Source: an uncultured virus (IMG/VR IMGVR_UViG_3300031758_003913) (lineage: Duplodnaviria; Heunggongvirae; Uroviricota; Caudoviricetes). From it: a stretch of DNA of 20,000 bases. The notes under the pieces were generated by a model that made no database searches, was not told the DNA's origin, and was given only the letters and a program-made list of their open reading frames with translations. Every line of letters starts with the position of its first letter. Positions within the stretch are counted from its first letter, which is position 1. Location of the stretch: the IMG/VR virus record IMGVR_UViG_3300031758_003913, positions 58,600 through 78,599 of that record. The stretch is one strand, 5' to 3'. Made by a program: the position numbers and the translations under genes. Below are positions 1 through 14,721 of the stretch, one piece after another.

Positions 1-712
1 TAAATTTTTTCCAATAATCTAATACATTGTCTTTATCTCTACCTAACGTGGTCCCATTGGTACTGTATCTTAATTCAATGTCATATTTTTTACGTTCATC
101 AAGTAGTTTTAAAATTTTCCAATGTTCAGGCATCATTAGTGGTTCGCCACCTGCAAAATGTATCTGCTTCATTGTATCTAAATTTTGTGCAATGTCGTCC
201 CAAAATAAATCTGCTTTTTCTAAATCAATTAATCTTGTTTCAGAATATTTGTCGTATCCAGGATGTAGTTTAATCCAATCAGATGCCCACTGTGTACTAA
301 ACAGTGGTGAACATGTTGTGCAAGCTAGATTACAATAGTTACTAAATCTAAAATCCCAGTATTTTAATTGCAATGAAGGAATGGCACCGTCTATATCTGT
401 TTGTTCAATTAACGGTTGCATTTCTGCATACCATCTATCATTAAAGCCTGTTCGCATACTATTAAGTCCAACAGCTTCTTTAGAAGTACATCTTTCACAA
501 GCAGTAGGCAGAGGCTTGCCTTCAAGCATATTTTTCCTCATTACTTTAGCTTGATCACTATTAACAATTTCTATAAGTTTTTGAGTTTTTACATTTCCAA
601 AACTATTTTCGTTTTTTAATGGGGTTTGACAACATGCAAAAGCTCTACCGTCGTTGATGACGTGCAAGTGCATCCAGGGTGCTACACAAAAATTATTAAA
701 ATCTTTATTCAT
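1..712 (-). CDS. Radical SAM enzyme with N-terminal twitch/SPASM-like domain (rSAM-1), 3'-truncated by window edge; not in ORF track
   Basis: Manual translation from ATG at 712 (overlaps upstream stop, ATGAATAA): MNKDFNNFCVAPWMHLHVINDGRAFACC...GN...CERC...WDFRFSNYCNLACTTCSP...HFAGGEPL...YSTNGT...DYWKKF, open to the edge. CxxxCxxC at 311-334 plus GGEP and TNG motifs. Confidence 0.93.
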   Translation of the reverse strand, partial: MNKDFNNFCVAPWMHLHVINDGRAFACCQTPLKNENSFGNVKTQKLIEIVNSDQAKVMRKNMLEGKPLPTACERCTSKEAVGLNSMRTGFNDRWYAEMQPLIEQTDIDGAIPSLQLKYWDFRFSNYCNLACTTCSPLFSTQWASDWIKLHPGYDKYSETRLIDLEKADLFWDDIAQNLDTMKQIHFAGGEPLMMPEHWKILKLLDERKKYDIELRYSTNGTTLGRDKDNVLDYWKKF

Positions 713-1997
713 ATTGCATTTCTTTGAAAAGGTCGTAAAATTTCCAAGTGTGTTTTTTATCATAAAACTTTTTCTTATTGGCCTCGATAAATGGTTTTGT
801 TAAAATTATACGATCATTAATTTCTTCTTTAGACAATTTAGATAATCTGTCAACTTCAGTCATTATTAAATTTAATTTAATTTTTAAATCACTAACACTA
901 TCATATGTTTCATTAAACAGATCTACATAACTAAAATATCCTTCGTTATTAAGATAACGCATAGTAGATAAACTTCCTACTACCATAAAAGGATAACCTT
1001 GAGCAATAGCGTTCCATATATTTGGCGATACCCATAGTGCATTTGTTTCTGACAGATACGTTTTATCCATCATAGGTGTGAACGGCTCTGCTACAATTGC
1101 AAATAGACTGTCTTCTAATGACTCCGATATATTTGCGATAGTTGTCTCAGATGATAATAAATTATTAATTATATCTTTTTTTGACTGTTTGTTATTTAAC
1201 AATGACTCATTAGTAAATATTTTACTATCTAAATTTAGATTTTTGTTTTTCTTAACATTAAATTCATAGCAACCTTTATCTAATAATTCTCTAGATTCTA
1301 GTTCAGTAATAGTAGCCAGTGAATGCATTGACGATTCACCAGTTAATGCTGTAAATAGTAAACTGGGATTATTCCAATTATTGATATCAAAACTTTCACG
1401 CACTTCATCATCTAGTAAAAATGTGACCCAATGATAATCAATATTTTGATACTTAGATTTACAAGTTAGTTGATAAGCAATTTGCCACCAATCAATACCA
1501 AATACTTTAACCTTGTCAAATAATTCCTGATAGGAACAATTAATATCACCGGTTATTAAATAAATTTGATCAGTAGGAACTCCGTTTCGAATTAATACAT
1601 CAATTCTTTCTTTAAGATTTTGCATAAAGTTATAATCACCTATCCATTGTTGATAAAGTAATAATAATTTCATTTTTCGTTTTTTAATACGAGTTAATGT
1701 CTTTTCCGGAATAATATCAATAAGACGATTCCGTATTGCTGTTTTTGAAAGCTCCAATGGATAAAATAAATTTGACGCCATATCTCTTTTAGTAAACAAA
1801 TTAACTGTGACTTCGTTTGCCTTCATTACATTATAAAAATACGTAGTTTTAAGGACTTGATCACTGTATTCTAAACTAGACATCACTGGAATATCGTACT
1901 GTTTATTAATTTTATATCGTGTTATGCCGTTAGGAACAGGTATTCCGTTAACAATATTATCGTAATATAAATTAATTGTAGGTCGCAATAGGATCAT
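705..1997 (-). CDS. Hypothetical protein with C-terminal GT10 (fucosyltransferase)-like region, degenerate motif
   Basis: 430-aa ORF; ATG at 1997 preferred over TTG at 2000 because AAGGA lies 6 nt upstream. C-terminal SLFAIVAE...WVSPNIWNAIAQGYPFMVVGS...YLNNEGY...FNETYD resembles the spacing of the GT10-type motif F.L.FENS...Y.TEK...A....P.V.G. Confidence 0.5.
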   Translation of the reverse strand: MILLRPTINLYYDNIVNGIPVPNGITRYKINKQYDIPVMSSLEYSDQVLKTTYFYNVMKANEVTVNLFTKRDMASNLFYPLELSKTAIRNRLIDIIPEKTLTRIKKRKMKLLLLYQQWIGDYNFMQNLKERIDVLIRNGVPTDQIYLITGDINCSYQELFDKVKVFGIDWWQIAYQLTCKSKYQNIDYHWVTFLLDDEVRESFDINNWNNPSLLFTALTGESSMHSLATITELESRELLDKGCYEFNVKKNKNLNLDSKIFTNESLLNNKQSKKDIINNLLSSETTIANISESLEDSLFAIVAEPFTPMMDKTYLSETNALWVSPNIWNAIAQGYPFMVVGSLSTMRYLNNEGYFSYVDLFNETYDSVSDLKIKLNLIMTEVDRLSKLSKEEINDRIILTKPFIEANKKKFYDKKHTWKFYDLFKEMQYE

Positions 1998-3420
1998 CAA
2001 TGTTCCTTGAGTCAGGTGTTAACACCCAGCCTTCTTTGTCTGCTAACTCTTTTATTGCTATGTCTGTATCAGGTATAGTATCAATCCAATCTGTTAAAAT
2101 TTTAGGAAATACATATATGGATTTTGATCTGCGCTGATCGTACTGCTGATAAAAAGTTTTAAAGTCTCTCCACAGTGTAATAGGATTACTTGTTCTGCGA
2201 TGAGGTGCATCTACTGTAACAAGATAATCAATTAATCTTTCAATACTTGCACGTTCAAATTCGTGCCAACCTGGTAGGTCTTTATTTTGCGCATACCATG
2301 TTGACAGCTTTTTATGGCAATGATCTTTAATATGATTAGGTAGTGCCAACGGACTTTGAAAACTAGGAAATCTTAACAGATTTAAACTAACAGTAGGAGT
2401 TCTACTTTGTGTCATTTCTTTTAGCTGGTACATTTCGTCAAGAAATTCAGTAATACTAAACAAAGATAAACTATTAATAGTCATCATTATGTGTACACCT
2501 TTATAGTTTGCTTCTGTAAGAATTCTTTTTAGATTTGTTTTCCATAGTTGATAATCTAGACCATCACGTATGTATTCTGCTTGATCGCCTACTGCTTCGC
2601 AACTTGTGTACAAATCAAAGTGTTTAATATTTTTTGATTTAGCAATTAACTTATCTATAATATCAGACTTTGCAATTAAGTTACTGTTAATAGCAAATCT
2701 CATATCACTGTTTTGCGCTTCAAACCAATCAAATAATTTCCATGTGTTACCACTCATTAGAGGTTCGCCGCCTGTGATTCGTAACTCTTGTAGACTTTCT
2801 GATAGTCCGTTATCCCACCATTTCCAAAATGCTTGTACATAGGGATTATCTTCATCGTCTTTGTAAGGCTGTGCCCAAGATCCATCGTGATGAAATGCGC
2901 CTGCGCCGTCACTTACAAGATTAATATAAGGACCGTTGTTTTTAATATCCTTTGCCCATGTAGTTGAGAAACTAGCATTACAATATGAACAGGCAAGATT
3001 ACATACCCTATCAAATGCAATTTCAAAAGTTTTTAAATTAGTATTTTCGTTTATGTCTGCATCAAACGCCTGTTGTAGTTCTTCATCAGTATAAATGATA
3101 CTTTTAAATGTTCGATCACTAACAGCATCTTTGCCCATGTCTTCCATTTTCCAACAGTACTCACACTCGCGAGGGCGTTCGCCAGACTGCATCATTCGAC
3201 GCATTTCTTTTTTATGTTCAGTATTATGAATAGCAGTGTAATTACGTTTAATTTCCTCTATTGGAATTTTATGTGCTGGAGGATGATGGCAACTTGCTGT
3301 GGTACCACTACCTAGCCATGTAGTAGCATTATACCATTTTGCTCCGCAGAAGCTGGTGCTCTTAGTGTCTAGAACACGTTCTCTATATTGCTTTAAATCT
3401 TCTTCAGGCTTCTTGGGCAT
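1972..3420 (-). CDS. Radical SAM enzyme with N-terminal twitch-like domain (rSAM-2)
   Basis: 482 aa; N-terminal FCGAKW...SCHH...CEYCW; CNLACSYC at 2980-3003; RITGGEPL; INSNL. Confidence 0.93.
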   Translation of the reverse strand: MPKKPEEDLKQYRERVLDTKSTSFCGAKWYNATTWLGSGTTASCHHPPAHKIPIEEIKRNYTAIHNTEHKKEMRRMMQSGERPRECEYCWKMEDMGKDAVSDRTFKSIIYTDEELQQAFDADINENTNLKTFEIAFDRVCNLACSYCNASFSTTWAKDIKNNGPYINLVSDGAGAFHHDGSWAQPYKDDEDNPYVQAFWKWWDNGLSESLQELRITGGEPLMSGNTWKLFDWFEAQNSDMRFAINSNLIAKSDIIDKLIAKSKNIKHFDLYTSCEAVGDQAEYIRDGLDYQLWKTNLKRILTEANYKGVHIMMTINSLSLFSITEFLDEMYQLKEMTQSRTPTVSLNLLRFPSFQSPLALPNHIKDHCHKKLSTWYAQNKDLPGWHEFERASIERLIDYLVTVDAPHRRTSNPITLWRDFKTFYQQYDQRRSKSIYVFPKILTDWIDTIPDTDIAIKELADKEGWVLTPDSRNIDDPIATYN

Positions 3421-4786
3421 CCCATTCCTTTAATAAGTTTTTGAATTCAGGAAATATCTTAGTAAACGATTTGTTTCTTCTAAAATTATACTCTTGTATG
3501 TATCTTACAAAGTCCTGTCTGTGTTCTACTGCTGGTTCTGCTGTGCGTAAGTAATCACAAAATCTTTGTATTTGATCCCATTCTTCTAAATAGATTCGAG
3601 CATACTTTTCTAAGCTATAATATTTCAGCCATTTTTCACAAGCTACATAGATATCATCTGCATACTGCTGTCTTTCTTCTTTATCTAAAAGAGTGCATTG
3701 CAAATGTGGTGGCCATCTTAGATAATTTATACTGAGCGGAATTCGATTATGTTCAAAGTTTGTATTGTAATCTTTACGTAACTGCATTACTAGTTCTATA
3801 AAATCTACAAAGGTAGGTAAACTTAATATGTTAACAGTGGTCATTATAGCCACTGTTGATTGCGTATTATCTAATACTTTACAAACATTCTGCTGCCATA
3901 CACTGATGTCTAATCCGTCTCTTGCATATTCTGCCTGAGATCCAGTGCTTTCAAGACTAGTGTAAATATCTAAACGCTTTATCACACCTCGTAAGCTATT
4001 AATTTTATTAATTAATTTTTCAATTAATACATCAGGCACACACATGTTAGTGTTAATAGCTAATTCTAATTCAGGCTGCGGGTTTTCAATTAAGTAATCT
4101 AATAATTTCCATAAGTCTTTACTCATAGTTGGTTCACCGCCTGTAATACGCAACACTTTTAAATGCGGTAACGTTTCTGGAAACCATTTCCAGAAAGCGT
4201 CTACATACGGATTCTCATCGTGATGTGCATACGGATAACGTCCCACTTGTTTTAACCAGCCTAAATGATGAGCTCCATTCTTAACTGGGTAAGACCCGTT
4301 CTGTTGTATATCTTCCATCCATTTAGATGAAATTTCAGGACTACAGTAAATACACGCAAAATTACATGCATTGGAAAAACTAATTTCTAAATAACTAGGA
4401 TAAACATTATCATTAGGGTCGCTGTTAGCAATTTGATCAAATTTATCCCATGCCCAGTAATCCGATGTTTTATAATGCCTATCGCTAAAATAATCTTTAT
4501 TTAAATCTTCTATGTTCCAACAATAATCACACTCACTAGGTCGCTCGCCTTTGAGCATCAGTTCACGTTGGCTTTTTTTAAATTTACTGTTATGCAATGC
4601 CGCAGGATCTGCTAGTACTTCTTCGAGAGGAATCTTATGAGGAGCAGGATGATGGCAACTGTGATTGTAACCGTTTTGCAGATATAAAGTTGTTTGTAAC
4701 CATTTAGCTGTGCAAAAACTACAACTTACTGAGTTAATTTTATCTCGTTTATCTTTGAGTATTTGTATTTTTTGCTCGTTGCTCAT
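3404..4786 (-). CDS. Radical SAM enzyme with N-terminal twitch-like domain (rSAM-3), paralog of rSAM-2
   Basis: 460 aa; CSFCTAKW...SCHH...CDYCW; CNFACIYC at 4343-4366; RITGGEPT; INTNM. Shares HKIP.EE, GERP.EC.YCW, NPYV.AFWKW and AEY.RDGLD with rSAM-2. Confidence 0.93.
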   Translation of the reverse strand: MSNEQKIQILKDKRDKINSVSCSFCTAKWLQTTLYLQNGYNHSCHHPAPHKIPLEEVLADPAALHNSKFKKSQRELMLKGERPSECDYCWNIEDLNKDYFSDRHYKTSDYWAWDKFDQIANSDPNDNVYPSYLEISFSNACNFACIYCSPEISSKWMEDIQQNGSYPVKNGAHHLGWLKQVGRYPYAHHDENPYVDAFWKWFPETLPHLKVLRITGGEPTMSKDLWKLLDYLIENPQPELELAINTNMCVPDVLIEKLINKINSLRGVIKRLDIYTSLESTGSQAEYARDGLDISVWQQNVCKVLDNTQSTVAIMTTVNILSLPTFVDFIELVMQLRKDYNTNFEHNRIPLSINYLRWPPHLQCTLLDKEERQQYADDIYVACEKWLKYYSLEKYARIYLEEWDQIQRFCDYLRTAEPAVEHRQDFVRYIQEYNFRRNKSFTKIFPEFKNLLKEWDAQEA

Positions 4787-5676
4787 TTTGCCCTTTTAAT
4801 TATTCTTGGCGTGTTTTGATACACCGTCTTGAAAAATTTTGAACCGTCACTATCAATATTGGAAACTTCTAAACCGCACTTGTGTTTAAGTTCAGTACCT
4901 AACCAATTAAAATAATCAGAAGTATCTGTTGTAGGACCGTATCCCTTTTCTTTCCAATACTCAGTTAAATATTCAAAGTCGCGCACCTGTGCATAATCCC
5001 AGTCAGTACAATTAGTCATGTAACAACCTTCTCGAGCACCTATTGTACTCCAAATGCCGTTATCAACGTCTACACCAATATTGCACCATATAAGTAATCG
5101 TTGATAATTTTGCCACCACACCTTTTTTATATCAGTAGTTTTAGTGCCTTGGTTGAGGCTCATTTTAACACCTTCGCGGAATCCTGCTCGCCAGGCTTGA
5201 AAAGGTGTTGCATTAGTAAAACTTTCTGAATAACTGTCGTTGAACTGATAATACTTTTCGTCAAAACAAAATTCTACTTTTCCCTTTTCGTCGTCAACTG
5301 CTGAATTTTCGTGTGTACGCATATTATTAACAAATTTACGTGTCCACATTTTTAAACCACCATTGCCATACATAAGGCCGTTGACGTGAACTTTTCCGCA
5401 CCAACTAAACACATGCTCAGTAGTGAGACCTAATTCTGCTAAGTCTACTTCAATGTCAAGAAATTTTGGATCAATTATATTATCAGCATCTACAGTAACA
5501 AAGTATTCTGTTTCGCTTAGTGCGGCACATGCTTTGTGTGCGGCGTCGCTGCCCTTAACTCCATGAACTCTTTTTGCCCAAGGAACTTTTGCACATAGGT
5601 CAGCATAATTTTTTTCAGCATTAGGTTCGTCATAACTAAGGAAAATAATGTCCTGTTCCGCTACTTTAATTTTCAT
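4783..5676 (-). CDS. GT-A fold (GT2-like) glycosyltransferase
   Basis: 297 aa; N-terminal IIFLSYDE strand, helix AAHKACAA, then EYFVTVDADN with a DxD motif (5482-5490), the layout of a GT-A nucleotide-sugar binding domain. Confidence 0.7.
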   Translation of the reverse strand: MKIKVAEQDIIFLSYDEPNAEKNYADLCAKVPWAKRVHGVKGSDAAHKACAALSETEYFVTVDADNIIDPKFLDIEVDLAELGLTTEHVFSWCGKVHVNGLMYGNGGLKMWTRKFVNNMRTHENSAVDDEKGKVEFCFDEKYYQFNDSYSESFTNATPFQAWRAGFREGVKMSLNQGTKTTDIKKVWWQNYQRLLIWCNIGVDVDNGIWSTIGAREGCYMTNCTDWDYAQVRDFEYLTEYWKEKGYGPTTDTSDYFNWLGTELKHKCGLEVSNIDSDGSKFFKTVYQNTPRIIKRAK

Positions 5677-6244
5677 AATTTTTTACCAAATGATAATAAT
5701 TTTCAAATATCTTACCACAATACAAACTTACATTTAATCGTTGAGCAACTTTTACTAATTGATTAGGCAGCACAAACGATTTATCGAATAGTATATTATA
5801 CAACTTTACTTCTATTGTGTCTAGTAAAATATTTGGGTCGTCTTGATCAGTAACATATATCAGCTGAGTTTTATCTTTATAATATGCAGTCTGAGTTAAT
5901 AACGCTCGTAGTTGTTCGGTCATACTGATTGTCCAAACTCCCTGTTTAACATCTTGTTCGATTACAACTGCATTATTAGTATTAACATTATCAACTTTTT
6001 GAATTTGATGAACGCTTGTATCTACGTCAAATGTTAATAGATCTTGATGTTTCAATTGCAATTCATATTTTAAATCTGTCTTGCCAGTAGGAACAATAAT
6101 GTAGTCTTGCATTCGCTTTTGTTCAGTTGAAAACTCTTTATAAAGTTCGGCTTCTACTTCTATATACGGAGTTGACTCGTCAAGCTCATTGGTTATTTTC
6201 CATATCTCGCCTCCAGGATCTTTAAAATTAAAATACCATTTCAT
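5666..6244 (-). CDS. Hypothetical protein (about 192 aa)
   Basis: ORF fills the gap between epimerase and GT. Start revised from 6262 to ATG 6244, which gives an ATGA overlap with the epimerase stop. No recognisable motif. Confidence 0.75.
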   Translation of the reverse strand: MKWYFNFKDPGGEIWKITNELDESTPYIEVEAELYKEFSTEQKRMQDYIIVPTGKTDLKYELQLKHQDLLTFDVDTSVHQIQKVDNVNTNNAVVIEQDVKQGVWTISMTEQLRALLTQTAYYKDKTQLIYVTDQDDPNILLDTIEVKLYNILFDKSFVLPNQLVKVAQRLNVSLYCGKIFENYYHLVKNYEN

Positions 6245-7158
6245 TTTAATTTTTCTTTCCAAATTTCAATAGTTTTGTCAAGACCGTCACTTAAACTTAC
6301 TTTAGGTGTCCACCCGGTTAGCTTGGTAAGTAAATTATGATTACTATTCAACCAATAAATTTCTCCTGGACGGTGTAGTTTGCGATGCCAATGTATTTTA
6401 CCATCCCAATTAAGTTTCTTTGCAATTATAGTTGCATATTCTCTAATCTTAATTGGATTATCTGGACCAATAGTTAAGATTTTTCCTGTGTTTACTAGTG
6501 CAGGATTATTGATAATAGTAGTCCAAGCACTTAGCATGTCATCGATAAAGATAAAGTTACGATATGGCTCTGCATATCCAAACTCTGCTTCATACGGATT
6601 AGCCAGCATCTGACTAATAATTTGTTCAGTAACAAAAAATTCATTATCCTTGCGGCCATAACAGTTTGTTTGTCTAATAGCAGTAAATGGTAGTTCTAAA
6701 CAACGATGTGCATATTCTAAATATTTTTCAACTCCATACTTAGCCACAGCATAAGGCGCATTAGGATTGGGCGGTGTGTTTTCGTCAAAAGCTTCAAATA
6801 TTTCCGGAACTCTACCAGATTGGACAATATCACTAATAGGTTGCCAACCATACACTTCCATAGTACTTGCAAACACGAAGTTTTTAAGATTAGGAATTTT
6901 TGTTGCAGTTTCAATTAAATTGACACTACCTACATAATTAATTTGACTAAATGTTATTTGTTCGTAAAAACTTTTTTCTACTTCTGTACGTGCGGCAAGG
7001 TGTACAATAATGTCAGGCTGAAAGTCTAAAACTTCTTTTGTAACTGCATCAAAATCTAGTAAGTCGCTTTTTAAAGAATAAATCTCGTGTTGTTCTTTTA
7101 ACAACGGTTCTAAATGTTGACCTATAAAGCCGCTTGTTCCAGTCATTAAAATTTTCAT
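6241..7158 (-). CDS. NAD-dependent NDP-sugar epimerase/dehydratase (extended SDR)
   Basis: 305 aa; Rossmann TGTSGFIG, HLAA, FASTMEVYG, catalytic YAVAK (YxxxK), RQTNCYG, RNFIFIDD, RPGE and GWTPKVSL..GL..T; AAGGA Shine-Dalgarno upstream. Confidence 0.93.
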   Translation of the reverse strand: MKILMTGTSGFIGQHLEPLLKEQHEIYSLKSDLLDFDAVTKEVLDFQPDIIVHLAARTEVEKSFYEQITFSQINYVGSVNLIETATKIPNLKNFVFASTMEVYGWQPISDIVQSGRVPEIFEAFDENTPPNPNAPYAVAKYGVEKYLEYAHRCLELPFTAIRQTNCYGRKDNEFFVTEQIISQMLANPYEAEFGYAEPYRNFIFIDDMLSAWTTIINNPALVNTGKILTIGPDNPIKIREYATIIAKKLNWDGKIHWHRKLHRPGEIYWLNSNHNLLTKLTGWTPKVSLSDGLDKTIEIWKEKLK

Positions 7159-7171
7159 TATTATTTTCCTT

Positions 7172-7993
7172 TTATATTAATTTCTCAATAATATTATCTG
7201 TTAGAAACTCGTCTTCCACATAATGTAATAAACCTTTTTGAACATAATTACCCAGAATTAATGTACCATCAGGTCTATAATATTTTCCAATAACTTTAGT
7301 CCATTGCTCTGGAGTTTGTCTCCATCCTTGCACATGAGGTTTCATATGCGTAAAGGTAATAAAACTATTAGGATCAGTTATTTCTGTTTCGTTACCTAAT
7401 ATTTTACTTGCAAGAGCACAGCTAACATCCATTGAACACCATTTTTGATATTCTTCTGACGCAAATTTACCATAGAATAATTGCCAATTATTTGTAATCA
7501 TTTCAACTAGATTATAAAACTCCTTAGCAACATCTCCCTTTTTAAAATAATGACAGGCACTATAAAGATTAGGAAGTTTATTAGCAATAAAAGTTTTTCT
7601 ATAATAAGCAGAAGTTACTAATTCGTCTCGATATGTGCGGACATTACTTACAAAAAATAAATCTCGCTTGCCTAGTTCTTGCCACCAATGTGTAATGTCA
7701 GTTAGTATTAACATGTCTGCTTCTAAGACAATTGTTTCGTCGTAGGGACTAGCATGATATACCTTCCAACGATTCTGTATTTTCCATTGTGCATCTTTTG
7801 CACTATCGTCCCACGGAATTGGAAGTATTTGATCAAAGACATTTTTGTATTCTGTTGGAACTGTGTCGTTTGTAATTAACGAAATTTTTTGATCTTTGTT
7901 ATACTTGTGAAGACTCAATGCTAAAGCATATGCCTGTTTTACATAATCAGTAGTTTCATTATTTTGTGCAAGTAAACAAAATCCTTTATTCAT
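7172..7993 (-). CDS. GT-A fold glycosyltransferase-like protein (GT8/GT71/GT77-like), ExD variant
   Basis: 273 aa; GFCLLAQN...YVKQAYALALSL...ITND...FDQI...SPYDETIVLEADML (EAD at 7715-7723) and late FTHMKP. Confidence 0.7.
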   Translation of the reverse strand: MNKGFCLLAQNNETTDYVKQAYALALSLHKYNKDQKISLITNDTVPTEYKNVFDQILPIPWDDSAKDAQWKIQNRWKVYHASPYDETIVLEADMLILTDITHWWQELGKRDLFFVSNVRTYRDELVTSAYYRKTFIANKLPNLYSACHYFKKGDVAKEFYNLVEMITNNWQLFYGKFASEEYQKWCSMDVSCALASKILGNETEITDPNSFITFTHMKPHVQGWRQTPEQWTKVIGKYYRPDGTLILGNYVQKGLLHYVEDEFLTDNIIEKLI

Positions 7994-8846
7994 TTGTCAA
8001 GGCCTCATCTATTGCACGATTAAGGCTAAACTTATTCATGATATGAATATTAGTATCTTTAATGTATCCGGCGGTATAATGCCCTACCCACTCTTTTTTA
8101 TCTAATAAAAATGTATAACTCTCATCTTCCATTTTTATTAATACGTCAGCGTCAGTAGTAAACCATAATTTTCCAGGTAATGCTTTAGGCCAGCTAGTAC
8201 GCTGAAACCCATTTAGCATATGAATTGCTATACTAAACGTATAATCATTACGAAACAATTTAAACGGAATTTGATATATTAATCTATAGAAATGCCAATT
8301 TTCTTTAATGTGATCTAGTAATTCAAAAAAACTTTGCATAAACTCTGTTTTTTTAAAATAAAAAACAGTAGCCCAATACATATCAATACTTCTGTCACTA
8401 ATTTTATTAAATTCGTGACCGTCAGGCCTATCTTGATTTAAATCTTCAACATTTCTATATATGAAAAACTCTTCGTCGGTACCAAAACAATTTAAAAGCA
8501 AATTGTTACCTATGATAAAATCAGTATCCATAACAATAGTTTCGTCAAACGGCGTTATATTGTATGCACTTGATCTATTATGATTCTTCCATTCTAGATC
8601 ACGCTTGCTCATTGTACCGTCACGAAACCTTCGAGTTTGAGTGGTTGTATAAAAATCTAACGGGATTATATGTTGTATGTATTTTTCATAATACGGAAAT
8701 TGACTTTTTAGATAGTCAGGATTATCTGTTGCAAGAGCTACAGGAATGCCTAAATGTTTCTTAATTTTTTTTGCACAATAGATTGCTTGTTTAATATAAT
8801 CAATTGTAGAATTATTAAGAGCAAACAGTAATACTCCCCTCGTCAT
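7986..8846 (-). CDS. GT-A fold glycosyltransferase (GT8/GT71/GT77-like), paralog of downstream gene
   Basis: 286 aa; GVLLFALN...YIKQAIYCA...ATD...TPFDETIVMDTDFII (DTD at 8520-8528), RND and IHIMNK. Confidence 0.75.
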   Translation of the reverse strand: MTRGVLLFALNNSTIDYIKQAIYCAKKIKKHLGIPVALATDNPDYLKSQFPYYEKYIQHIIPLDFYTTTQTRRFRDGTMSKRDLEWKNHNRSSAYNITPFDETIVMDTDFIIGNNLLLNCFGTDEEFFIYRNVEDLNQDRPDGHEFNKISDRSIDMYWATVFYFKKTEFMQSFFELLDHIKENWHFYRLIYQIPFKLFRNDYTFSIAIHMLNGFQRTSWPKALPGKLWFTTDADVLIKMEDESYTFLLDKKEWVGHYTAGYIKDTNIHIMNKFSLNRAIDEALTNE

Positions 8847-9190
8847 AAATTAACAAGTCCCTTTACTGTTCTATTTTTTTTGATTTCGTTGTACTTATTA
8901 AGGTATTCATTTGAGTTAGTAAAATAAATGTCAGTTATGTCATCTAAAAATTTTTCTAGATCAGATACTTCAACCGGAGCATCGTTGTCATCTATAAGAA
9001 CAATATTAGCGTGACCTCGACTTTGCATTAAACTGCAAAAATTGATCAGTTCTCTAGTAACTGAAAATTTACCGCCATTAAGATAATGTATACAATTTTC
9101 TAAAAATTGTTCACGAATGACTCTGCGCTGATTATTCAGCGTAGTCATAAAATTTGAAAATTCAAGTGCTTTTTCTAAACGATCGTCCAT
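8843..9190 (-). CDS. Hypothetical protein, first gene of the glycosylation/rSAM operon
   Basis: 115 aa; perfect AGGAGG 5 nt upstream; ATGA overlap with the next gene. NGGKF...LIDDNDAPVEV.DL loosely recalls DUF4376-type tail-fibre-associated proteins (weak). Confidence 0.8.
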   Translation of the reverse strand: MDDRLEKALEFSNFMTTLNNQRRVIREQFLENCIHYLNGGKFSVTRELINFCSLMQSRGHANIVLIDDNDAPVEVSDLEKFLDDITDIYFTNSNEYLNKYNEIKKNRTVKGLVNL

Positions 9191-9208: not shown

Positions 9209-9237
9209 ATTATATAACAAAATGTGCAGGATGTCAA
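9209..9237 (-). promoter_or_regulatory. Consensus sigma70-type promoter
   Basis: Minus strand TTGACA (9237-9232), 17-nt spacer TCCTGCACATTTTGTTA, TATAAT (9214-9209); 12/12 consensus match in the largest intergenic gap of the window. Confidence 0.9.
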
Positions 9238-9240
9238 TGA

Positions 9241-10353
9241 TTATGTGAATAATTCGTCTGCTACTATTGCTACAGGAGTAGGGACTGAAACAAAACTGCC
9301 AGTGGCTCGTCTTAGATCTAACCCAATCTGTAATGTACCGTCAACTGGCTCGTCAACTCCTGGCCCTGTACCTGTTTGGTCGCCTAAATCGTTATCAGTT
9401 AATTCAATTGATATAGTAATAATGTCGCCAGTAAGGTTTCGTCGTGCATACATTGTAATGGTATTTTCAGCATAGTTTGCACTTTCCCCGCCGCCATTAC
9501 GTTGAAAAATTAATTGATAACTTGTTGTTAATTGAAAATTTCCTATGCTACTATCAACAATACCATCTAGGTTAACATCAGTAACGCCGTCTCTTGCTCT
9601 TCCTGTGCCAGTCACAGTAGTCTTATTTTTACCAAGTACTACTGCTCCCATATTTTGAAGCATCACTGCCCAGTCTGACCCTTTAACTTGACTAGTACTA
9701 GTATTTGCGCCTGAAATTCTTATTTCGCCGCCTGTATTAAAAAAGTGTCTTCTATGATCTGCTCCAGTTGCTGTGACTGTAGCACCGGTAGTAGAATCAG
9801 AAACTTGATACCCGCCTTCAAAAACTATTTCAAATATACAATTTACTGTTTGTAGCTGTCCAGCGCCGCCCCATGATGCAGTACGTGTACTCGATGCAAA
9901 TACCCTAGTATTTGTTAATGTATTTTGTATAGGATGAACTGTAGGAGTGACTGCATCAGATATAGTTTTTACGTTTGCAACGGCTGTAATAAAATCGTTA
10001 ACTCCCATAGTAGTGTCAGAACTATTATGAGTAAATGTTATGGTTCCACCAGTATCTACCCGTGTTACACTAGTACCTGATTCATCTGCACCAATAATTC
10101 TACCGGTAGTAAGAGCACCAATACTTTGATCAGTATTTTGCTGATGTCTAGAAATTCTATTAATTTGTGTTCTAAGATTGTTCCATTCTGTAATGGCTAT
10201 ATCTTTTGTAGAACTTCCAGTTACTGTTGTTAAGTTAGAAATTAATTGACCGTACCCTGCTGCACCAACACCGTTGCCTAAGATATTTCTTATCTCAGAA
10301 ACTAAATTATTATAGTCTGTGTTTTGTGCTACATTACCAATACTTACTGTCAT
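9241..10353 (-). CDS. Putative virion structural (tail-associated) protein, paralog B
   Basis: 370 aa, Thr/Gly/Ser-rich; shares YN.L...ILG.G...GYGQ, RR.FFN.GGEI, KG.DW..MLQNMG, SIGN.Q.T.SYQ.IF.RNG, YAEN and DE.V.GTL with the adjacent 301-aa gene; lies at the end of the tail module. Confidence 0.65.
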   Translation of the reverse strand: MTVSIGNVAQNTDYNNLVSEIRNILGNGVGAAGYGQLISNLTTVTGSSTKDIAITEWNNLRTQINRISRHQQNTDQSIGALTTGRIIGADESGTSVTRVDTGGTITFTHNSSDTTMGVNDFITAVANVKTISDAVTPTVHPIQNTLTNTRVFASSTRTASWGGAGQLQTVNCIFEIVFEGGYQVSDSTTGATVTATGADHRRHFFNTGGEIRISGANTSTSQVKGSDWAVMLQNMGAVVLGKNKTTVTGTGRARDGVTDVNLDGIVDSSIGNFQLTTSYQLIFQRNGGGESANYAENTITMYARRNLTGDIITISIELTDNDLGDQTGTGPGVDEPVDGTLQIGLDLRRATGSFVSVPTPVAIVADELFT

Positions 10354-10365
10354 AGTTTAACCTTG

Positions 10366-11271
10366 TTAAGCGCCGCTGGCGAGATCAACTTGATTAGAAT
10401 ATGATGGAGATGTAATTGATACGTAACTTCCGGTTGGACGGAGTTGTTTAACTAAACTAGTAAGTGTTCCAAAGACTGATTCGTCGTTTCCTGGATCTCC
10501 GCTATCAGCATCTAAAAATTCTATTCTAAACTGGATCGCTCTAGTACTTATTTCTTTTGCTGACACGTAGTATCTGTTTTCGGCATAAGTGCTAAGTTGT
10601 CCATTTCTTTCAAAAATTCTTTGATAAGAAGATGTTATTTGGTAATTTCCAATTGAATAAGCTGTTCCGCCACTACCTGTTTTAGTTGTAGCATTTTTGC
10701 CAAATTTAATAGTACCCATGTTTTGAAGCATGGCATTCCAATCTAAGCCTTTTGATGTTGTATCTCCAGCAATTTCAGCAGATACGTGTATTTCGCCGCC
10801 AGCGTTAAAAAATGCTCTACGCTGATCTTGGCTATTCCAAGTTACTGTAAAAGAATGTACTGGCTGACCGTTCCATGGACTATATCTAACACTTGTAATA
10901 GCTGTTTCTATTGTAACTTGTGTAGGATCTACTATTTGAGCATTTGGTTCAAGAACATTCATTAGTGAAACATAAGCGTTAAAACCTTTAGTTGGATCAC
11001 CATTTACTGCGTTAGCACTAATTTTGTCGCCAGAATCTAATTCTGAAAGATTTGAGAGACTACCAGTTTGATGTACACAAATTCTATTAAGATCAGTTCT
11101 TAATAATTCCATATGTTCAGCTGTTATTAACGTCTCAGCATCAACTAAACTACTAACTAATGACTGTCCGTATCCAGATTGATCAAAGCCTTGCCCCAAT
11201 ATGTTGGCAACCCTACTTTGTAAGGTATTATAATTTGCTGCTGTAATCTTTGAGCCGACTGTTACTGACAT
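10366..11271 (-). CDS. Putative virion structural (tail-associated) protein, paralog A
   Basis: 301 aa; collinear paralog of 9241-10353; preceded by TATAAATA and AGGA. Confidence 0.65.
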   Translation of the reverse strand: MSVTVGSKITAANYNTLQSRVANILGQGFDQSGYGQSLVSSLVDAETLITAEHMELLRTDLNRICVHQTGSLSNLSELDSGDKISANAVNGDPTKGFNAYVSLMNVLEPNAQIVDPTQVTIETAITSVRYSPWNGQPVHSFTVTWNSQDQRRAFFNAGGEIHVSAEIAGDTTSKGLDWNAMLQNMGTIKFGKNATTKTGSGGTAYSIGNYQITSSYQRIFERNGQLSTYAENRYYVSAKEISTRAIQFRIEFLDADSGDPGNDESVFGTLTSLVKQLRPTGSYVSITSPSYSNQVDLASGA

Positions 11272-11295
11272 GTTATTTCCTATTAAATACTACTA

Positions 11296-11303
11296 TATTT
11301 ATA
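11296..11303 (-). promoter_or_regulatory. T4-type late promoter motif TATAAATA
   Basis: Exact T4 gp55 late consensus, overlapping the upstream TAA stop, 24 nt before ATG 11271. Confidence 0.65.
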
Positions 11304-12801
11304 ATACTAGTACACACTCGATTAATTTTTCATTTTCTAAAGAATTACTTTCTAATGCTACACCAATTTTATAAGGGCCTGATAATGATCCTACGCCGTG
11401 GTCTCCTGCATATATTATATCACCCTTTTTAACAGCGCCTATAATTCTTACTGGAACTCTGCCTTTTAGAGCAATGGCTTGACCATCAGCTTCGGCATTC
11501 ATTGTAAATGCTGGCGCTGTTGACACAACACCTACAGGAAAGCCAGTGCTTTGACATGCTTCTAACTCATGATCTGGATGTTCACATACCATCATAATAG
11601 TTCCTGGAATATGTTCTTGATCAGTTGTATATTTTTCTGCTAAGTCAGCATATCGTGCTTCAGCTGCAACTCCTTGAAATACATTTGCAAAAATATCTCC
11701 ATCATTATTTCTAATAGCAACAGTGTTAGGTGTTGCTGTTAATGAACCAAGTCTATTTTCGCCTGCTACTACAAGAGCACTAGCACGTTGAGCTAAACCT
11801 GTAAATGTGTCTGCATATATGTTTAGCCAAGGATAATCAGCTGTACCAATTGTTGAACCTAATCTAGTTGGATTTGGAGTAAATTCAGTACCTGCAACAA
11901 ATCCTGGTATAATATTATCAGCAAATATACGCATTGGATTTTTGATGTTGCCTAAAAGATCCTTTGCTTTAAAAACAATTTGATTACCAACTTCGTTTGC
12001 AATTATAGCATTAGTAGTTGTTGATTCAACACTGATTCTAAAATCTCCAGAATCACCTACTAATATACCTGCATCTCTAAAAGATGCTAAAGAGTTAAAT
12101 GTTGGATTGTCAGATCGAACATAATTAGCCGCAGGTTGACCACCTAATTTTTCAGTGTTAGATGCAGTTCCCCAGAATCTCCAATCGCCTGATGTAACTC
12201 CGCCTGAGCTATTTAACGTATTCTTTAATGTAATACCTTGTTTGATTCTGTCAAATCCAGAAATGTTACTAGCAACATCACTAGTGTCAATAGTAAAATC
12301 TTGATTGCTTATGACAAAAATAACTTCATCATTAACAACTGCTGTAATAATGCCTCTTGATCCACCACCGGTATCTCTAACTGTACGACTTACAATCTGT
12401 GTTTGTCCTGATCCTGCACTTTGTGGTCCAATAAGTACAAAATCAATACCGTTGTATGTATACAACTGTTCATTAGCTGTATCCCACCAAAAATCGCCTC
12501 GCTTTAGACCGGTTGGAACATTACTACTTACTTCAGCACCGCCTGTGGTTCTCCACTGGAATCCGTCATAAAATTTAAGTTTGCTATTTGCACTGTCAAA
12601 CCAAAGCTGTCCGCTTACTGCTCTAGGAGGCGCATTTGTTCCTGAAAAGTTTTCAAGTAAAAATACAAAGTTTTCGTTTTGTATTTCACCGTAACCTGCA
12701 TAATTCTTACCTACTAATTTTAAGTCGGTGCTTTGATCAATAGTACCGTCTTCAATTACGGTTAGTTGACCTTTATTATATCTATCAATTGTATATGCCA
12801 T
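11299..12801 (-). CDS. Tail fibre-like protein with C-terminal peptidase G2 / intramolecular-chaperone-like domain
   Basis: 500 aa; shared N-terminal module (DGTID..TDLKLVGKNYAGYGE..NENF..LLENF...GQLWFD); C-terminal ARYADLAEKY...GVVSTAP...IALKGRVPVR..G.VKKGD...IGVALE. Confidence 0.7.
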   Translation of the reverse strand: MAYTIDRYNKGQLTVIEDGTIDQSTDLKLVGKNYAGYGEIQNENFVFLLENFSGTNAPPRAVSGQLWFDSANSKLKFYDGFQWRTTGGAEVSSNVPTGLKRGDFWWDTANEQLYTYNGIDFVLIGPQSAGSGQTQIVSRTVRDTGGGSRGIITAVVNDEVIFVISNQDFTIDTSDVASNISGFDRIKQGITLKNTLNSSGGVTSGDWRFWGTASNTEKLGGQPAANYVRSDNPTFNSLASFRDAGILVGDSGDFRISVESTTTNAIIANEVGNQIVFKAKDLLGNIKNPMRIFADNIIPGFVAGTEFTPNPTRLGSTIGTADYPWLNIYADTFTGLAQRASALVVAGENRLGSLTATPNTVAIRNNDGDIFANVFQGVAAEARYADLAEKYTTDQEHIPGTIMMVCEHPDHELEACQSTGFPVGVVSTAPAFTMNAEADGQAIALKGRVPVRIIGAVKKGDIIYAGDHGVGSLSGPYKIGVALESNSLENEKLIECVLVL

Positions 12802-12827
12802 TATGTTTAACCCCTAAAGCGATGTAG

Positions 12828-12835
12828 TATTTATC
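12828..12835 (-). promoter_or_regulatory. Late-promoter-like motif GATAAATA
   Basis: Intergenic GGATAAATAC, 26 nt before ATG 12801, followed by an AGGGG SD-like sequence. Confidence 0.55.
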
Positions 12836-12837
12836 CA

Positions 12838-14721
12838 TTATAGTGGGTTTGTACGAACCCATTGCCAAACTCCGCTGTTTACTGTAAATTCCATAGTTGC
12901 TCTGCTTGGACTTAGATTTGCAATACCCGAAACTGTAGCAAAGTTAATATCCTGCAATACGCTTTCTAGCTGTGGAGTAGTACTGTCATCAGGATCTATA
13001 TAGACTGAAACATAAGATTTATTAGATGCTGCTGTAACATCGATCCCTGAAACTGTTGTTCCTGTATAAGAAATACAATAAACTCTAGCAATTGTTCCTG
13101 GTTGTTTTTCTATTGCAGGATACATAAAATTGAGAATCCCAATAACATCATTATAAGGACCATCTGATGCAAAAGATGCATTAGGATTTGATAACCCTGT
13201 TAAGTCTAAACTCATTACAAGAGGTTCTGATGCAACTGTTTGATCTACATAGCGTTTATTTGCTACGTCAAAGTTAGTAGTTGGATCTAACACTCCTGTA
13301 ATATTTTGATTGTTTATGACTATTGTGCCCGTTGACGAAATTCCTAGTGGGCCCGATACTACCATATTAGAACCGTTAAAATTAAAATTGTCAACATTTA
13401 ATTCTACTAAAGTACCAATACTAATTAATCCTTCAGCATATAAAATGCTATCATCTAATCTGTTTGTTGATAATTTAGTAACATTACCTATTTTATAAGA
13501 TTTTCCGGCTACTAAATTAAGATCTTCACTAAATGTCCAAGCGCCAGTCTCATATTCCCAAGTTAATGTTTTACTATCACCTTGCATTCTTACAATAATT
13601 CCAGCGCCGTCGGCTGCTTCAGGAGTAAGTAATGTGCTGTCAGATGTAGAAGCTAGTTCAATTGTTTTATCTTCAATTCTTAAATTAGATACATCTAAAA
13701 ATAAAGTTTCACCTTTAACTGTAAAATTACCTTCAACTTCAAGATCTCCAGTAATTCTAGTGCTTCCGTTTATGTCAAGATCAGTTGACGGAGTTACTGT
13801 CCAAATGCCGGCACGTTTATTTGTAGCATCAATATATAACGCATTATCAAAAGAGTTTCCTCGACGTGTTCTAATTGTAAAATCTTTATTAGATCGTTGA
13901 GTTTCAATAGTGCTTATTTCGCTTGCAATTTTTAAAACAAGAAATTCTGTATCACTAACACCAATACTTAAACCACCACTATTTCTAATTTTAATATTAC
14001 CAGTAGTTGTAGTATTTCTGTCTGTTTTCATGAAGTTGGCTTCAGTAAATTCTTCGCCAGCATCACTGATTAGAGATCGTGTACTCTGTGATGTTCCTCT
14101 AAACCAAAAATCTAAATTTACAGGATTAAGACCCTGTTTAACAATTTGTCGTCGAGGTGTACTTAGGTCATCCGGGTTTAATGGATATCCAACAATATTG
14201 ATTAGAGGAACAAATGTAGTTCTAGATATGATTCCAGTTAATTGGCCAGCAACATACATGAATAATACTGTTTGGTCTTGACTATTTCTATCTAAAATAG
14301 TAACTGCTTCAAATCCTGTTCTTCCCTGTGCTGCGTCATAATTAGGGCCTACTAATACTAGATCCGAACCATCGAAAAAATACAACTTGTTATTTTCACT
14401 ATCAATCCATAAGTCACCAACTACTAGATTAGGTCTTACATTACTTACTACTGGTCCGCCTGCAGCCTTAAATGTTTCTCCGTTGTAAATCTTTAGTCGT
14501 TCTTCTGCGGTATCATACCACAGTTGTCCAGTTAAAGGCTTGCCTGGAGCACTTGTCTTTGCAAAATTTTCAAGAAGCTTAATATAGTTTTCGTTTAAAA
14601 ATTCACCAAAGCCTTTATAATTTCTTCCTACTAAAACTATATCCGTTGAAGTAGCATCAATTTGTCCGTCTACTAACTCTATTAGTAGTTCGCCGTTGGT
14701 TTTATTAAGTCTGTAACTCAT
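12838..14721 (-). CDS. Tail fibre/baseplate-attached structural protein
   Basis: 627 aa; same N-terminal module (LVGRNYKGFGE..NENY..LLENFA...GQLWYD...GDLWID); fibre-shaft-like segments (LDINGSTRITGDLEVEGNFTVKG; DPTTNFDVANKRYVD). Confidence 0.7.
   Translation of the reverse strand: MSYRLNKTNGELLIELVDGQIDATSTDIVLVGRNYKGFGEFLNENYIKLLENFAKTSAPGKPLTGQLWYDTAEERLKIYNGETFKAAGGPVVSNVRPNLVVGDLWIDSENNKLYFFDGSDLVLVGPNYDAAQGRTGFEAVTILDRNSQDQTVLFMYVAGQLTGIISRTTFVPLINIVGYPLNPDDLSTPRRQIVKQGLNPVNLDFWFRGTSQSTRSLISDAGEEFTEANFMKTDRNTTTTGNIKIRNSGGLSIGVSDTEFLVLKIASEISTIETQRSNKDFTIRTRRGNSFDNALYIDATNKRAGIWTVTPSTDLDINGSTRITGDLEVEGNFTVKGETLFLDVSNLRIEDKTIELASTSDSTLLTPEAADGAGIIVRMQGDSKTLTWEYETGAWTFSEDLNLVAGKSYKIGNVTKLSTNRLDDSILYAEGLISIGTLVELNVDNFNFNGSNMVVSGPLGISSTGTIVINNQNITGVLDPTTNFDVANKRYVDQTVASEPLVMSLDLTGLSNPNASFASDGPYNDVIGILNFMYPAIEKQPGTIARVYCISYTGTTVSGIDVTAASNKSYVSVYIDPDDSTTPQLESVLQDINFATVSGIANLSPSRATMEFTVNSGVWQWVRTNPL

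Follow-up and report, generated by a model that had tools for sequence, protein, structure and literature searches.

A conserved glycosyltransferase-like and radical SAM gene block beside the fibre genes of a putative aquatic jumbo phage probably encodes a glycan pathway

The ten genes at positions 1–9190 of a 20,000-nucleotide stretch of uncultured virus DNA (hereafter the window) form an operon that probably encodes a glycan pathway. The window comprises positions 58600–78599, i.e. the right-hand 20 kb, of the 78,599-base IMG/VR virus contig IMGVR_UViG_3300031758_003913, and the operon combines glycosyltransferase (GT)-like proteins with radical S-adenosylmethionine (SAM) enzymes directly behind a set of tail-fibre genes. 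Since GTs are common to the phage, bacterial-bin and fused-protein contexts in which these genes occur, the building and editing of a glycan is the best reading of the operon. As a working proposal rather than an expectation, we further suggest that the glycan is assembled, edited by radical chemistry and accepted by the fibre proteins, which would decorate the virion. New here are the operon's own promoter, a surrounding island with 15 radical SAM genes, the conserved core order, the fold of the GT-like protein P5 and a cultured carrier, the Ralstonia phage RsoM2USA; the question becomes testable now that the minimal core is defined, its promoter located, one GT-A protein modelled with confidence and a cultured carrier identified.

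Layout of the operon and its promoter

Every gene in the window lies on the minus strand, and the ten open reading frames (ORFs) of positions 1–9190 overlap at each junction except for one 13-nt gap at 7159–7171. An initial annotation, made from the letters of the window, had described this arrangement and had proposed that the operon continues past the left edge; the ORF coordinates bear out the layout, and the same-strand run reaches genome position 49874 (genome positions are those of the whole contig). In the direction of transcription, the promoter and the genes, with lengths in amino acids (aa), are:

9209–9237, minus strand: sigma-70-type promoter (TTGACA-17 nt-TATAAT); AGGAGG and the start codon ATG of P10 come next
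8843–9190, minus strand: P10, 115 aa, first operon gene, without recognisable family (no family or PDB match)
7986–8846, minus strand: P9, GT8-like paralogue of P8, 286 aa, with a DTD motif (27% identical to P8 over 192 residues)
7172–7993, minus strand: P8, glycogenin-like (GT8-like) glycosyltransferase, 273 aa, by family profile against the PDB
6241–7158, minus strand: extended short-chain dehydrogenase/reductase (SDR), a nucleoside diphosphate (NDP)-sugar epimerase/dehydratase, 305 aa (PF01370, PF16363, phrog_540)
5666–6244 (ORF to 6262), minus strand: P6, core protein of 192 aa without recognisable family
4783–5676, minus strand: P5, GT-A-fold (GT2-like) protein, 297 aa (AlphaFold model, invariant E17 and D63xD65)
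3404–4786, minus strand: N-twitch radical SAM enzyme 1, 460 aa (NF033640, 324.7 bits)
1972–3420, minus strand: N-twitch radical SAM enzyme 2, 482 aa (NF033640, 301.8 bits)
705–1997 (ORF to 2000), minus strand: P2-family protein, 430 aa, recurrent partner of radical SAM genes
2–763, minus strand: N-twitch radical SAM enzyme 3, N-terminal 254 residues only (NF033640, 249.9 bits for this part)

Two of the ORFs are listed with a corrected start: the likely true start of the 431-aa ORF is position 1997 (giving 430 aa), and that of the 198-aa ORF is 6244, its homologues being 192 aa long. The ORF at 2–763 runs off the left window edge; the full gene of enzyme 3 encodes 436 aa (genome 58052–59362).

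The promoter sits in the 50-nt gap between the last fibre-like gene and the operon and is the sole match to all 12 positions of the sigma-70 consensus in the window. All five diverged relative loci that we inspected carry TTGAC[AT]-17-TATA[AC]T at the equivalent place, with differing spacers; upstream of the core of RsoM2USA there is no sigma-70 consensus and a hairpin is found instead. Elsewhere on the contig, a promoter of this type precedes FolE, an ATPase gene, an HNH gene and a second P5 paralogue. Because it has a promoter to itself, the operon is a separate transcription unit rather than a mere extension of the fibre transcript, and it is not demonstrably 'late'. The T4-type late promoter TATAAATA has one match in the window, compared to 4.4 expected by chance, and none upstream of the operon. 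Nine of the ten operon proteins have no hydrophobic segment and enzyme 1 has one marginal segment (1.66 at residue 312). Across genome positions 20.7–78.6 kb, which cover the island as well as the fibre and baseplate genes, none of 62 proteins has more than one hydrophobic 19-mer.

CheckV puts the completeness of the contig at 22%, which implies a whole genome of ~350 kb. Its DNA polymerase is nearest to those of Sinorhizobium phage Phosso (48%) and Agrobacterium phage Atu_ph07 (45%), followed by Rak2-like phages, and the exact sequence is present in lake and other freshwater metagenomes, with no RNA run among the 23 runs listed. Judging from its sequence, the phage is an aquatic jumbo myovirus. 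DNA near-identical to the window was not found in the phage collection.

Conservation of the core in related phages

Using radical SAM enzyme 1, we recovered 18 viral loci, of which four are identical to the window and 14 diverged (67–73% identity). In 12 of the 14 diverged loci, the genes follow the order fibres, P10, P9, P8, (P6), P5, enzyme 1, enzyme 2, and the other two begin at the radical SAM gene. Enzyme 2 is retained in all 14 at 77–83% identity, and the 431-aa gene holds its place in three viral loci. The conserved core order comprises the small protein P10, the two GT8-like proteins, P6, P5 and a radical SAM enzyme, behind fibre genes, which the core adjoins wherever the flank is available.

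The cultured Ralstonia phage RsoM2USA (MG752970) carries the core complete and ordered as genes 354, 353, 352, 351, 350 and 349, adjoining the fibre-like gene 355 and with a second P5 paralogue, gene 348, after the radical SAM gene. Identities to the window proteins are 33–45% (45% between enzyme 1 and RsoM2USA_349). Genes 348–354 are all annotated as 'hypothetical protein' and are not mentioned in the available sections of the published description of the phage (PMC8504454). Among 50,697 phage records, RsoM2USA is the sole one with P5, P8 or a close radical SAM enzyme. It has one radical SAM gene and no adjacent SDR, whereas the window has three or more radical SAM genes and the SDR.

A scan of a genome collection with the P5 family yielded 80 loci, namely 18 on phage-like contigs binned into metagenome-assembled genomes (MAGs) and 62 others. 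All 18 of the 18 phage-like MAG loci with the GT8 pair also have fibre homologues upstream. An N-twitch-type radical SAM enzyme, called at 100 bits or more against a hidden Markov model (HMM) of the contig's paralogues and within ±10 kb of P5, is present in 33 of the 80 loci, often overlapping P5. These include 13 of the 18 phage-like loci, four of the other five ending at P5, and 20 of the 62 remaining loci, nearly all of which are binned as Bdellovibrionales or Bacteriovoracaceae. The number of radical SAM genes per locus among the relatives ranges from one to six. The initial annotation had staked its reading on radical SAM and GT-like genes staying together in relatives, and they are kept together in the diverged viral loci, in RsoM2USA and in the MAG loci.

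The bacterial neighbours of P5 are GT2, GT4 and GT28 genes. Four bacterial-bin loci have 4, 7, 9 and 7 radical SAM genes, accompanied by GT2 genes, an Asp/Arg hydroxylase, a QueC-like protein and a B12-type radical SAM enzyme, and other bacterial-bin contigs carry MoxR, DUF58 and SppA-type genes. A single-protein scan for relatives of the radical SAM enzyme in bacterial context found none. The locus with nine radical SAM genes, one of them B12-binding, lies on a 349,524-base contig in an unclassified 'bacterium' bin and packs them into 20 kb together with P5 and an Asp/Arg hydroxylase; by its length, this contig may be a mis-binned jumbo phage. In Rhodobacterales isolates, P5 occurs without a radical SAM gene, beside GT4, GT28-C, large caspase-domain/Sel1-repeat and protein-kinase genes.

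P5 and the GT8-like pair

None of the GT-like genes is named by Pfam, NCBIfam or a PADLOC-independent source, and each was therefore examined separately. P5 belongs to an unnamed family of at least 8000 clusters at 90% identity (1239 representatives at 50%), and E17, D63 and D65 are invariant in 44 family sequences. In its AlphaFold model (predicted local distance difference test, pLDDT, 93.8; predicted template modelling score 0.92), residues 2 to ~160 are predicted to adopt a GT-A fold. Foldseek gave 26 PDB matches at E ≤ 1e-3, of which the listed ones are GT-A transferases and a few nucleotidyltransferases; the best are the PBCV-1 capsid glycosyltransferase A64R and the S-glycosyltransferases SunS/ThuS. 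Collagen galactosyltransferase is also among the structural matches. With VIA, the model matches B4GALNT1 (Z 10.0, root-mean-square deviation 3.1, 141 residues), and 112 chains reach Z ≥ 8. In a viral structure library, two uncharacterised phage proteins are closest, followed by a Che8 glycosyltransferase.

Sequence profiles point in the same direction at lower strength. In hhalign, P5 aligns to a profile of 45 GT2 domains with Prob 40% and P = 3e-4 over 69 columns, the DxD regions being aligned; the comparisons of the P5 family with one GT2 sequence (probability 4.6%) and with the P8 family (0.3%) are too weak to use. The window P5 has no Pfam GT2 match, and its 44 relatives show weak Pfam matches only, seven to PF00535 (best E = 0.03), four to PF13641 (0.0041) and one to PF13704 (0.034). 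A single-sequence PDB search with P5 gave no match. Homologues of 715–809 aa carry an N-terminal GT-B domain in six of six tested, a fusion that favours a glycan role, and two other homologues carry Sel1/TPR repeats.

The profile of the P8 family (25 members) matches only glycogenin-1/2 in the PDB (19 of 19 matches, best E = 1e-4). This alignment spans residues 15–105, and the DAD of the family falls on the DAD of glycogenin. Pfam returned no match for P8 or P9; PF01501 matches none of the 25 P8-family members and nothing on the contig at E ≤ 10, so that P8 is GT8-like and not a member of Pfam GT8. A single-sequence PDB search with P8 was also without a match. The P8-family HMM recovers P9 in relatives, always adjoining P8. 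Of the three GT-A-like proteins claimed initially, P5 now has a modelled fold, P8 is glycogenin-like by profile and P9 is its paralogue; the qualification is that Pfam names none of them as a GT.

Radical SAM enzymes

All three N-twitch enzymes of the window exceed the cut-off of 170 bits of NCBIfam NF033640 (N_Twi_rSAM, twitch domain-containing radical SAM protein), as do four more genes on the contig, giving seven. In 21 orthologues of enzyme 1, the cysteines of the CxxxCxxC motif (C141, C145 and C148) are invariant, together with the upstream C25, C44, C86 and C89. These results agree with the proposal that the window encodes three CxxxCxxC twitch radical SAM enzymes. Enzyme 3 has a Pfam SPASM match at residues 26–93 (3.5e-11), ahead of Radical_SAM at 140–249; the 'twitch' label is hence right, with an auxiliary-cluster domain that is unusually N-terminal. 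Enzyme 2 is a paralogue of enzyme 1 (39% identical). NF033640 is a subfamily model without a named reaction, to our knowledge it has no characterised member, and literature searches on twitch-domain radical SAM enzymes in phages found no characterisation.

The predicted structure of enzyme 1 (pLDDT 93.0) matches SkfB with Z 13.7, BlsE with 13.4, anSME, MoaA and CteB with 12.6, viperin with 12.2 and DesII with 11.4, and SuiB and AprD4 are also among its structural neighbours. Solved twitch/SPASM structures match it in VIA with Z 12.6–13.7 over 221–226 residues. With BlsE, BtrN-type sugar enzymes, SkfB, anSME and MoaA, it has in common a partial TIM-barrel core and one auxiliary four-cysteine cluster; the auxiliary domain is C-terminal in the solved twitch/SPASM enzymes and N-terminal in those of this phage. 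Among the nearest solved structures, enzymes that modify peptides are as frequent as those that modify sugars or nucleotides. As the neighbours are flat across the peptide, nucleoside-sugar and nucleotide classes, the substrate class of the radical SAM enzymes is unreadable from the fold, and the label 'sugar-tailoring' comes from their context, not from the enzymes themselves. A single-sequence PDB search with enzyme 1 gave no match. The Atlas clusters nearest to these enzymes are 88–100% viral, which, together with the size of the P5 family, marks this as one of the more frequent gene sets without explained function in large aquatic phages.

In one locus of the genome collection, a 735-aa protein consists of an N-twitch radical SAM enzyme fused to a radical SAM enzyme of a second type. 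Homologues of its two halves are adjacent separate genes on the contig (genome 44930–46177 and 46170–47057).

Proposed function and alternative explanations

In the model that we favour, the operon would be driven by its own promoter and encode soluble enzymes of the cytoplasm, the ten genes being its promoter-proximal part. P5 and the two GT8-like proteins would use NDP-sugars as donors and glycosylate a soluble acceptor. The N-twitch radical SAM enzymes, each of which often has a P2-family protein or another radical SAM enzyme as its partner, would abstract a hydrogen atom from a sugar or linkage, which could epimerise, oxidise, dehydrate, decarboxylate or cross-link the sugar. Gain and loss of radical SAM cassettes would then diversify the product among phages. 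The likeliest acceptor may be the phage's own fibre proteins, encoded immediately upstream. Attachment of the glycan to the fibres is plausible, given the fixed place of the module behind fibre genes across freshwater, marine and soil phages and the lack of a membrane or export component among the 62 proteins checked. A protein acceptor is also plausible by analogy, considering the matches of P5 to A64R, SunS/ThuS, collagen galactosyltransferase and the Che8 glycosyltransferase, its homologues with Sel1/TPR repeats, and glycogenin, the structural prototype of the P8 match, which is self-glucosylating.

Several observations weigh against this model. Sugar nucleotidyltransferases of the same fold reach Z 8.4–9.0 on P5, compared to 9.3–10.0 for transferases; with so small a difference, we infer rather than observe that P5 transfers a sugar and not a nucleotide. 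The window P8 reads EAD at residues 91–93 where its family has DAD. The radical SAM model is equally near to peptide maturases (SkfB, anSME, CteB) and to nucleoside or nucleotide enzymes (BlsE, MoaA, viperin). Bacterial GT8 proteins are mostly transferases of the lipopolysaccharide (LPS) core, which led the pelagimyophage authors to propose modification of the host O-chain (available sections of PMC7029224). Owing to its sigma-70-type promoter, the operon need not be co-expressed with late fibre genes. Finally, no fibre homologues were detected at the Bdellovibrionota-binned clusters of P5 and radical SAM genes, so that the product is not intrinsically tied to phage fibres. Of the initial proposal that the operon builds a radical-SAM-modified glycan for the tail proteins, a conserved soluble block of GT-fold and N-twitch proteins stands, whereas attachment to the tail proteins is hypothetical; the operon has its own promoter, its SDR is accessory and the GT10 assignment is unconfirmed.

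Remodelling of the host surface is unlikely in our view; LPS core, O-chain or capsule precursors would be altered, which would block superinfection or reduce the sticking of progeny to debris. Such a role was proposed for the GTs of pelagimyophage host-recognition clusters, whose GT8 proteins the authors tie to LPS synthesis (PMC7029224, available sections), and the bacterial P5 homologues are surrounded by GT2, GT4 and GT28 genes, as is typical of loci for envelope glycans. With a sigma-70-type promoter, the host RNA polymerase could also transcribe the operon in its unmodified form and as soon as infection begins, which is when superinfection exclusion would be expected to act. Nevertheless, the 62 proteins include no multi-pass membrane protein, be it a flippase, a polymerase or a bactoprenol transferase, and the module is fixed beside fibres in distant phages with necessarily different hosts (freshwater, marine, soil Ralstonia). 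We regard as quite unlikely that the GTs, twitch radical SAM enzymes, oxygenases, amidinotransferase-like protein and methyltransferase make a soluble small molecule during infection, such as an aminocyclitol- or aminoglycoside-like compound or a nucleoside-sugar metabolite. The island does encode an arginine deiminase (ADI)/amidinotransferase-like protein, an aminotransferase-like protein, a methyltransferase, two proteins of the Asp/Arg-hydroxylase fold and a 2-oxoglutarate (2OG) oxygenase. The structural neighbours of the radical SAM enzyme include BlsE, AprD4 and DesII, which tailor sugars or nucleosides, and a similar trio has been called 'antibiotic synthesis genes' in a cyanophage (available text of PMC12801897). 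Such a product would leave the constant place behind the fibre genes unexplained; moreover, no exporter or resistance gene was seen, and the core (P10, two GT8-like proteins, P6, P5 and radical SAM enzyme) has no scaffold-forming enzyme such as a cyclase.

The structural data also bear on maturation of a protein or peptide in the style of peptides made by ribosomes and modified post-translationally (RiPPs). Here a protein, which might be a fibre, would be cross-linked, epimerised or methylated by the radical SAM enzymes, with P5 as a SunS-like peptide glycosyltransferase. The best structural match of enzyme 1 is indeed the RiPP maturase SkfB, followed by anSME, CteB and SuiB; SunS and ThuS are among the best matches of P5, and genes of the Asp/Arg-hydroxylase fold are present in a bacterial-bin cluster as well as in the island. 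We nevertheless consider this reading decidedly unlikely, as the Z-scores of the radical SAM enzyme are flat across substrate classes and no RiPP recognition element was found (PqqD on P6, 0 of 24 family members). The sole small protein, P10, is conserved evenly, without a leader/core pattern or a Cys-, Ser- or Thr-rich core, and the junctions overlap apart from the 13-nt gap, leaving no room for a hidden precursor gene. Hypermodification of DNA, with the transferases glycosylating a modified base and the radical SAM enzymes remodelling it, is very improbable. Phage GTs can act on DNA (a general statement in the available text of PMC7029224), the contig has the 7-deazaguanine pathway genes FolE and QueE, and the operon shares its promoter class with FolE, which is a gene for DNA modification. 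Against this reading, the module is tied to the fibre genes, far from the block of polymerase, FolE and QueE; Pfam and NCBIfam scans revealed no base hydroxymethylase or DNA-binding domain in the operon, and the bacterial-bin clusters of P5 and radical SAM genes stand among envelope-type GT genes.

Virion glycosylation of the mycobacteriophage Che8/Corndog type was reportedly described by Freeman et al. in 2023. Both this system and that of the chlorovirus PBCV-1 (A64R, PDB 2p73) use soluble GT-A glycosyltransferases encoded beside structural genes, as in the present operon, whose link to virion glycosylation is putative; unlike this operon, they are not known to include radical SAM enzymes. 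The template modelling scores of P5 to A64R are low (0.27–0.38), so that only the fold is common to both. A closer genomic parallel is the host recognition cluster (HRC) of pelagimyophages and cyanomyophages, described as variable fibre-linked islands rich in GT8 transferases, whose radical SAM cassettes differ between close relatives and are left without an explained function in the available sections of Zaragoza-Solas et al. 2020 (PMC7029224). In common with this phage, the HRC is a large variable island joined to tail-fibre genes and contains GT8-type transferases and radical SAM cassettes. The HRC phages are T4-like, of about 150 kb and, in the text available, known from annotation only, whereas the phage studied here is probably a jumbo myovirus; the pelagimyophage island lies between VrlC and gp14. 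The available sections of that paper (PMC7029224) define neither the conserved core and its promoter nor the P5 and N-twitch families. The accessible part of PMC5332604 mentions in passing an environmental T4-like genome that has 12 radical SAM genes. Our literature searches found no paper in which radical SAM enzymes, jumbo phages and GTs occur together, supplementary tables excepted, in agreement with the earlier statement that no characterised phage pathway has this combination of enzymes.

A broader and rather unlikely extension is that N-twitch radical SAM enzymes and P5 represent an undescribed class of radical glycan editing common to aquatic jumbo phages and predatory Bdellovibrionota. 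The product would be a hypervariable sugar coat on the host-recognition fibres, and gain or loss of radical SAM cassettes would tune adsorption or shield the fibres. In any case, the phage spends about 45 kb and 15 oxygen-sensitive iron-sulfur enzymes on the island. A product that decorates fibres would mean that host range is determined at a further, new level and that carbohydrates undergo a new kind of radical chemistry; a product that alters the host surface would represent a new route to superinfection exclusion.

Accessory and small proteins of the operon

The SDR is clearly assigned, with PF01370 at E = 4.4e-37 (128.2 bits, cut-off 20.9) and PF16363 at 1.2e-33 (117.4 bits, cut-off 27), in keeping with its initial designation as an extended-SDR epimerase/dehydratase. 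No NCBIfam equivalog above its cut-off names the reaction (LegB-like, 105.3 of 475 bits; dTDP-glucose 4,6-dehydratase, 98.5 of 365.1 bits). Because the gene is found only in the four identical loci among the 18 viral loci, it is accessory, and its initial placement as an integral part of the pathway is not upheld.

The P2-family protein has no Pfam, PHROG or NCBIfam match, and its profile finds nothing among GT-A profiles or in the PDB. Its initial designation as a GT10-like protein is unconfirmed: the lead consists of Atlas values of 0.79 and 0.78 for the nearest named clusters, below the trust level of 0.9. At E ≤ 10, PF00852 does not match this gene, and its sole match on the contig is at genome 36490–36600 (11.7 bits). 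P2 paralogues alternate with N-twitch radical SAM genes in related phages, and two more adjoin radical SAM genes on the contig. Judged by this gene order, the P2 family and the radical SAM enzymes behave as partners in a cassette.

The profile of the P6 family finds RsoM2USA_351 (E = 1.6e-9). P6 was considered as a PqqD-type RiPP recognition element on the strength of an NCBIfam score of 16.4 bits and rejected, since none of the 24 family members matches PqqD and the PDB profile search gave nothing relevant. Orthologues of P10 are found in 13 aligned loci, including RsoM2USA_354. The candidate roles of P10 as a RiPP precursor or fibre chaperone were discarded, given its even conservation and the lack of a PDB relative.

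Fibre genes upstream of the operon

Five consecutive fibre-like genes, in two paralogue sets, occupy window positions 9241–16793:

9241–11271, minus strand: two paralogous fibre-like proteins, 370 and 301 aa, 34% identical, directly upstream of the operon
11299–16793, minus strand: three fibre proteins with a common N-terminal module (PHROG tail fibre/collar families)

Homologues of the two fibre-like proteins occupy the equivalent place in relatives. Serine and threonine make up 22.4% and 20.9% of the 370- and 301-aa proteins and 15–22% of the fibre-like neighbours as a group, compared to 9–14% of the operon enzymes; this compositional enrichment would fit a role as glycan acceptor and is suggestive only. 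The last of the three large fibre proteins contains a tail-collar domain (Pfam Collar, 1.5e-14). These three are alike only over their N-terminal ~260–450 residues, as if one attachment module had been combined with varied distal parts.

The surrounding island and the remainder of the contig

The operon forms the right end of a ~45-kb island that extends left to about 22.8 kb. Its 15 radical SAM genes lie between 25.5 and 63.4 kb; seven pass NF033640, and the others are generic or SPASM-bearing. A QueE-like radical SAM gene outside the island brings the total on the contig to 16. A second sigma-70-type promoter, TTGACA-17-TATAAT at genome 54487–54515, directly precedes the P5 paralogue at 53797–54480 (227 aa, 34% identical), which is flanked by SPASM-type radical SAM genes; this region suggests a second, smaller module of like design. 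Also inside the island, the gene at genome 40114–41145 encodes a cold-shock DNA/RNA-binding domain fused to a 2OG-Fe(II) oxygenase domain. At the far island end, genome 21658–22803 encodes a 381-aa protein with an Mtd_N domain (E = 2.3e-9), which could be a receptor-binding protein of the diversity-generating-retroelement type.

Outside the island, genome 11824–14674 contains a FolE-like GTP cyclohydrolase gene (phrog_2197, with its own sigma-70-type promoter) and the QueE-like radical SAM gene (phrog_2076), which point to a putative pathway for modifying the DNA of this phage with 7-deazaguanine. Another gene resembling nucleotide-sugar epimerases (genome 2905–3630; phrog_540, E = 2.3e-45) adjoins the DNA polymerase gene, far from the island.

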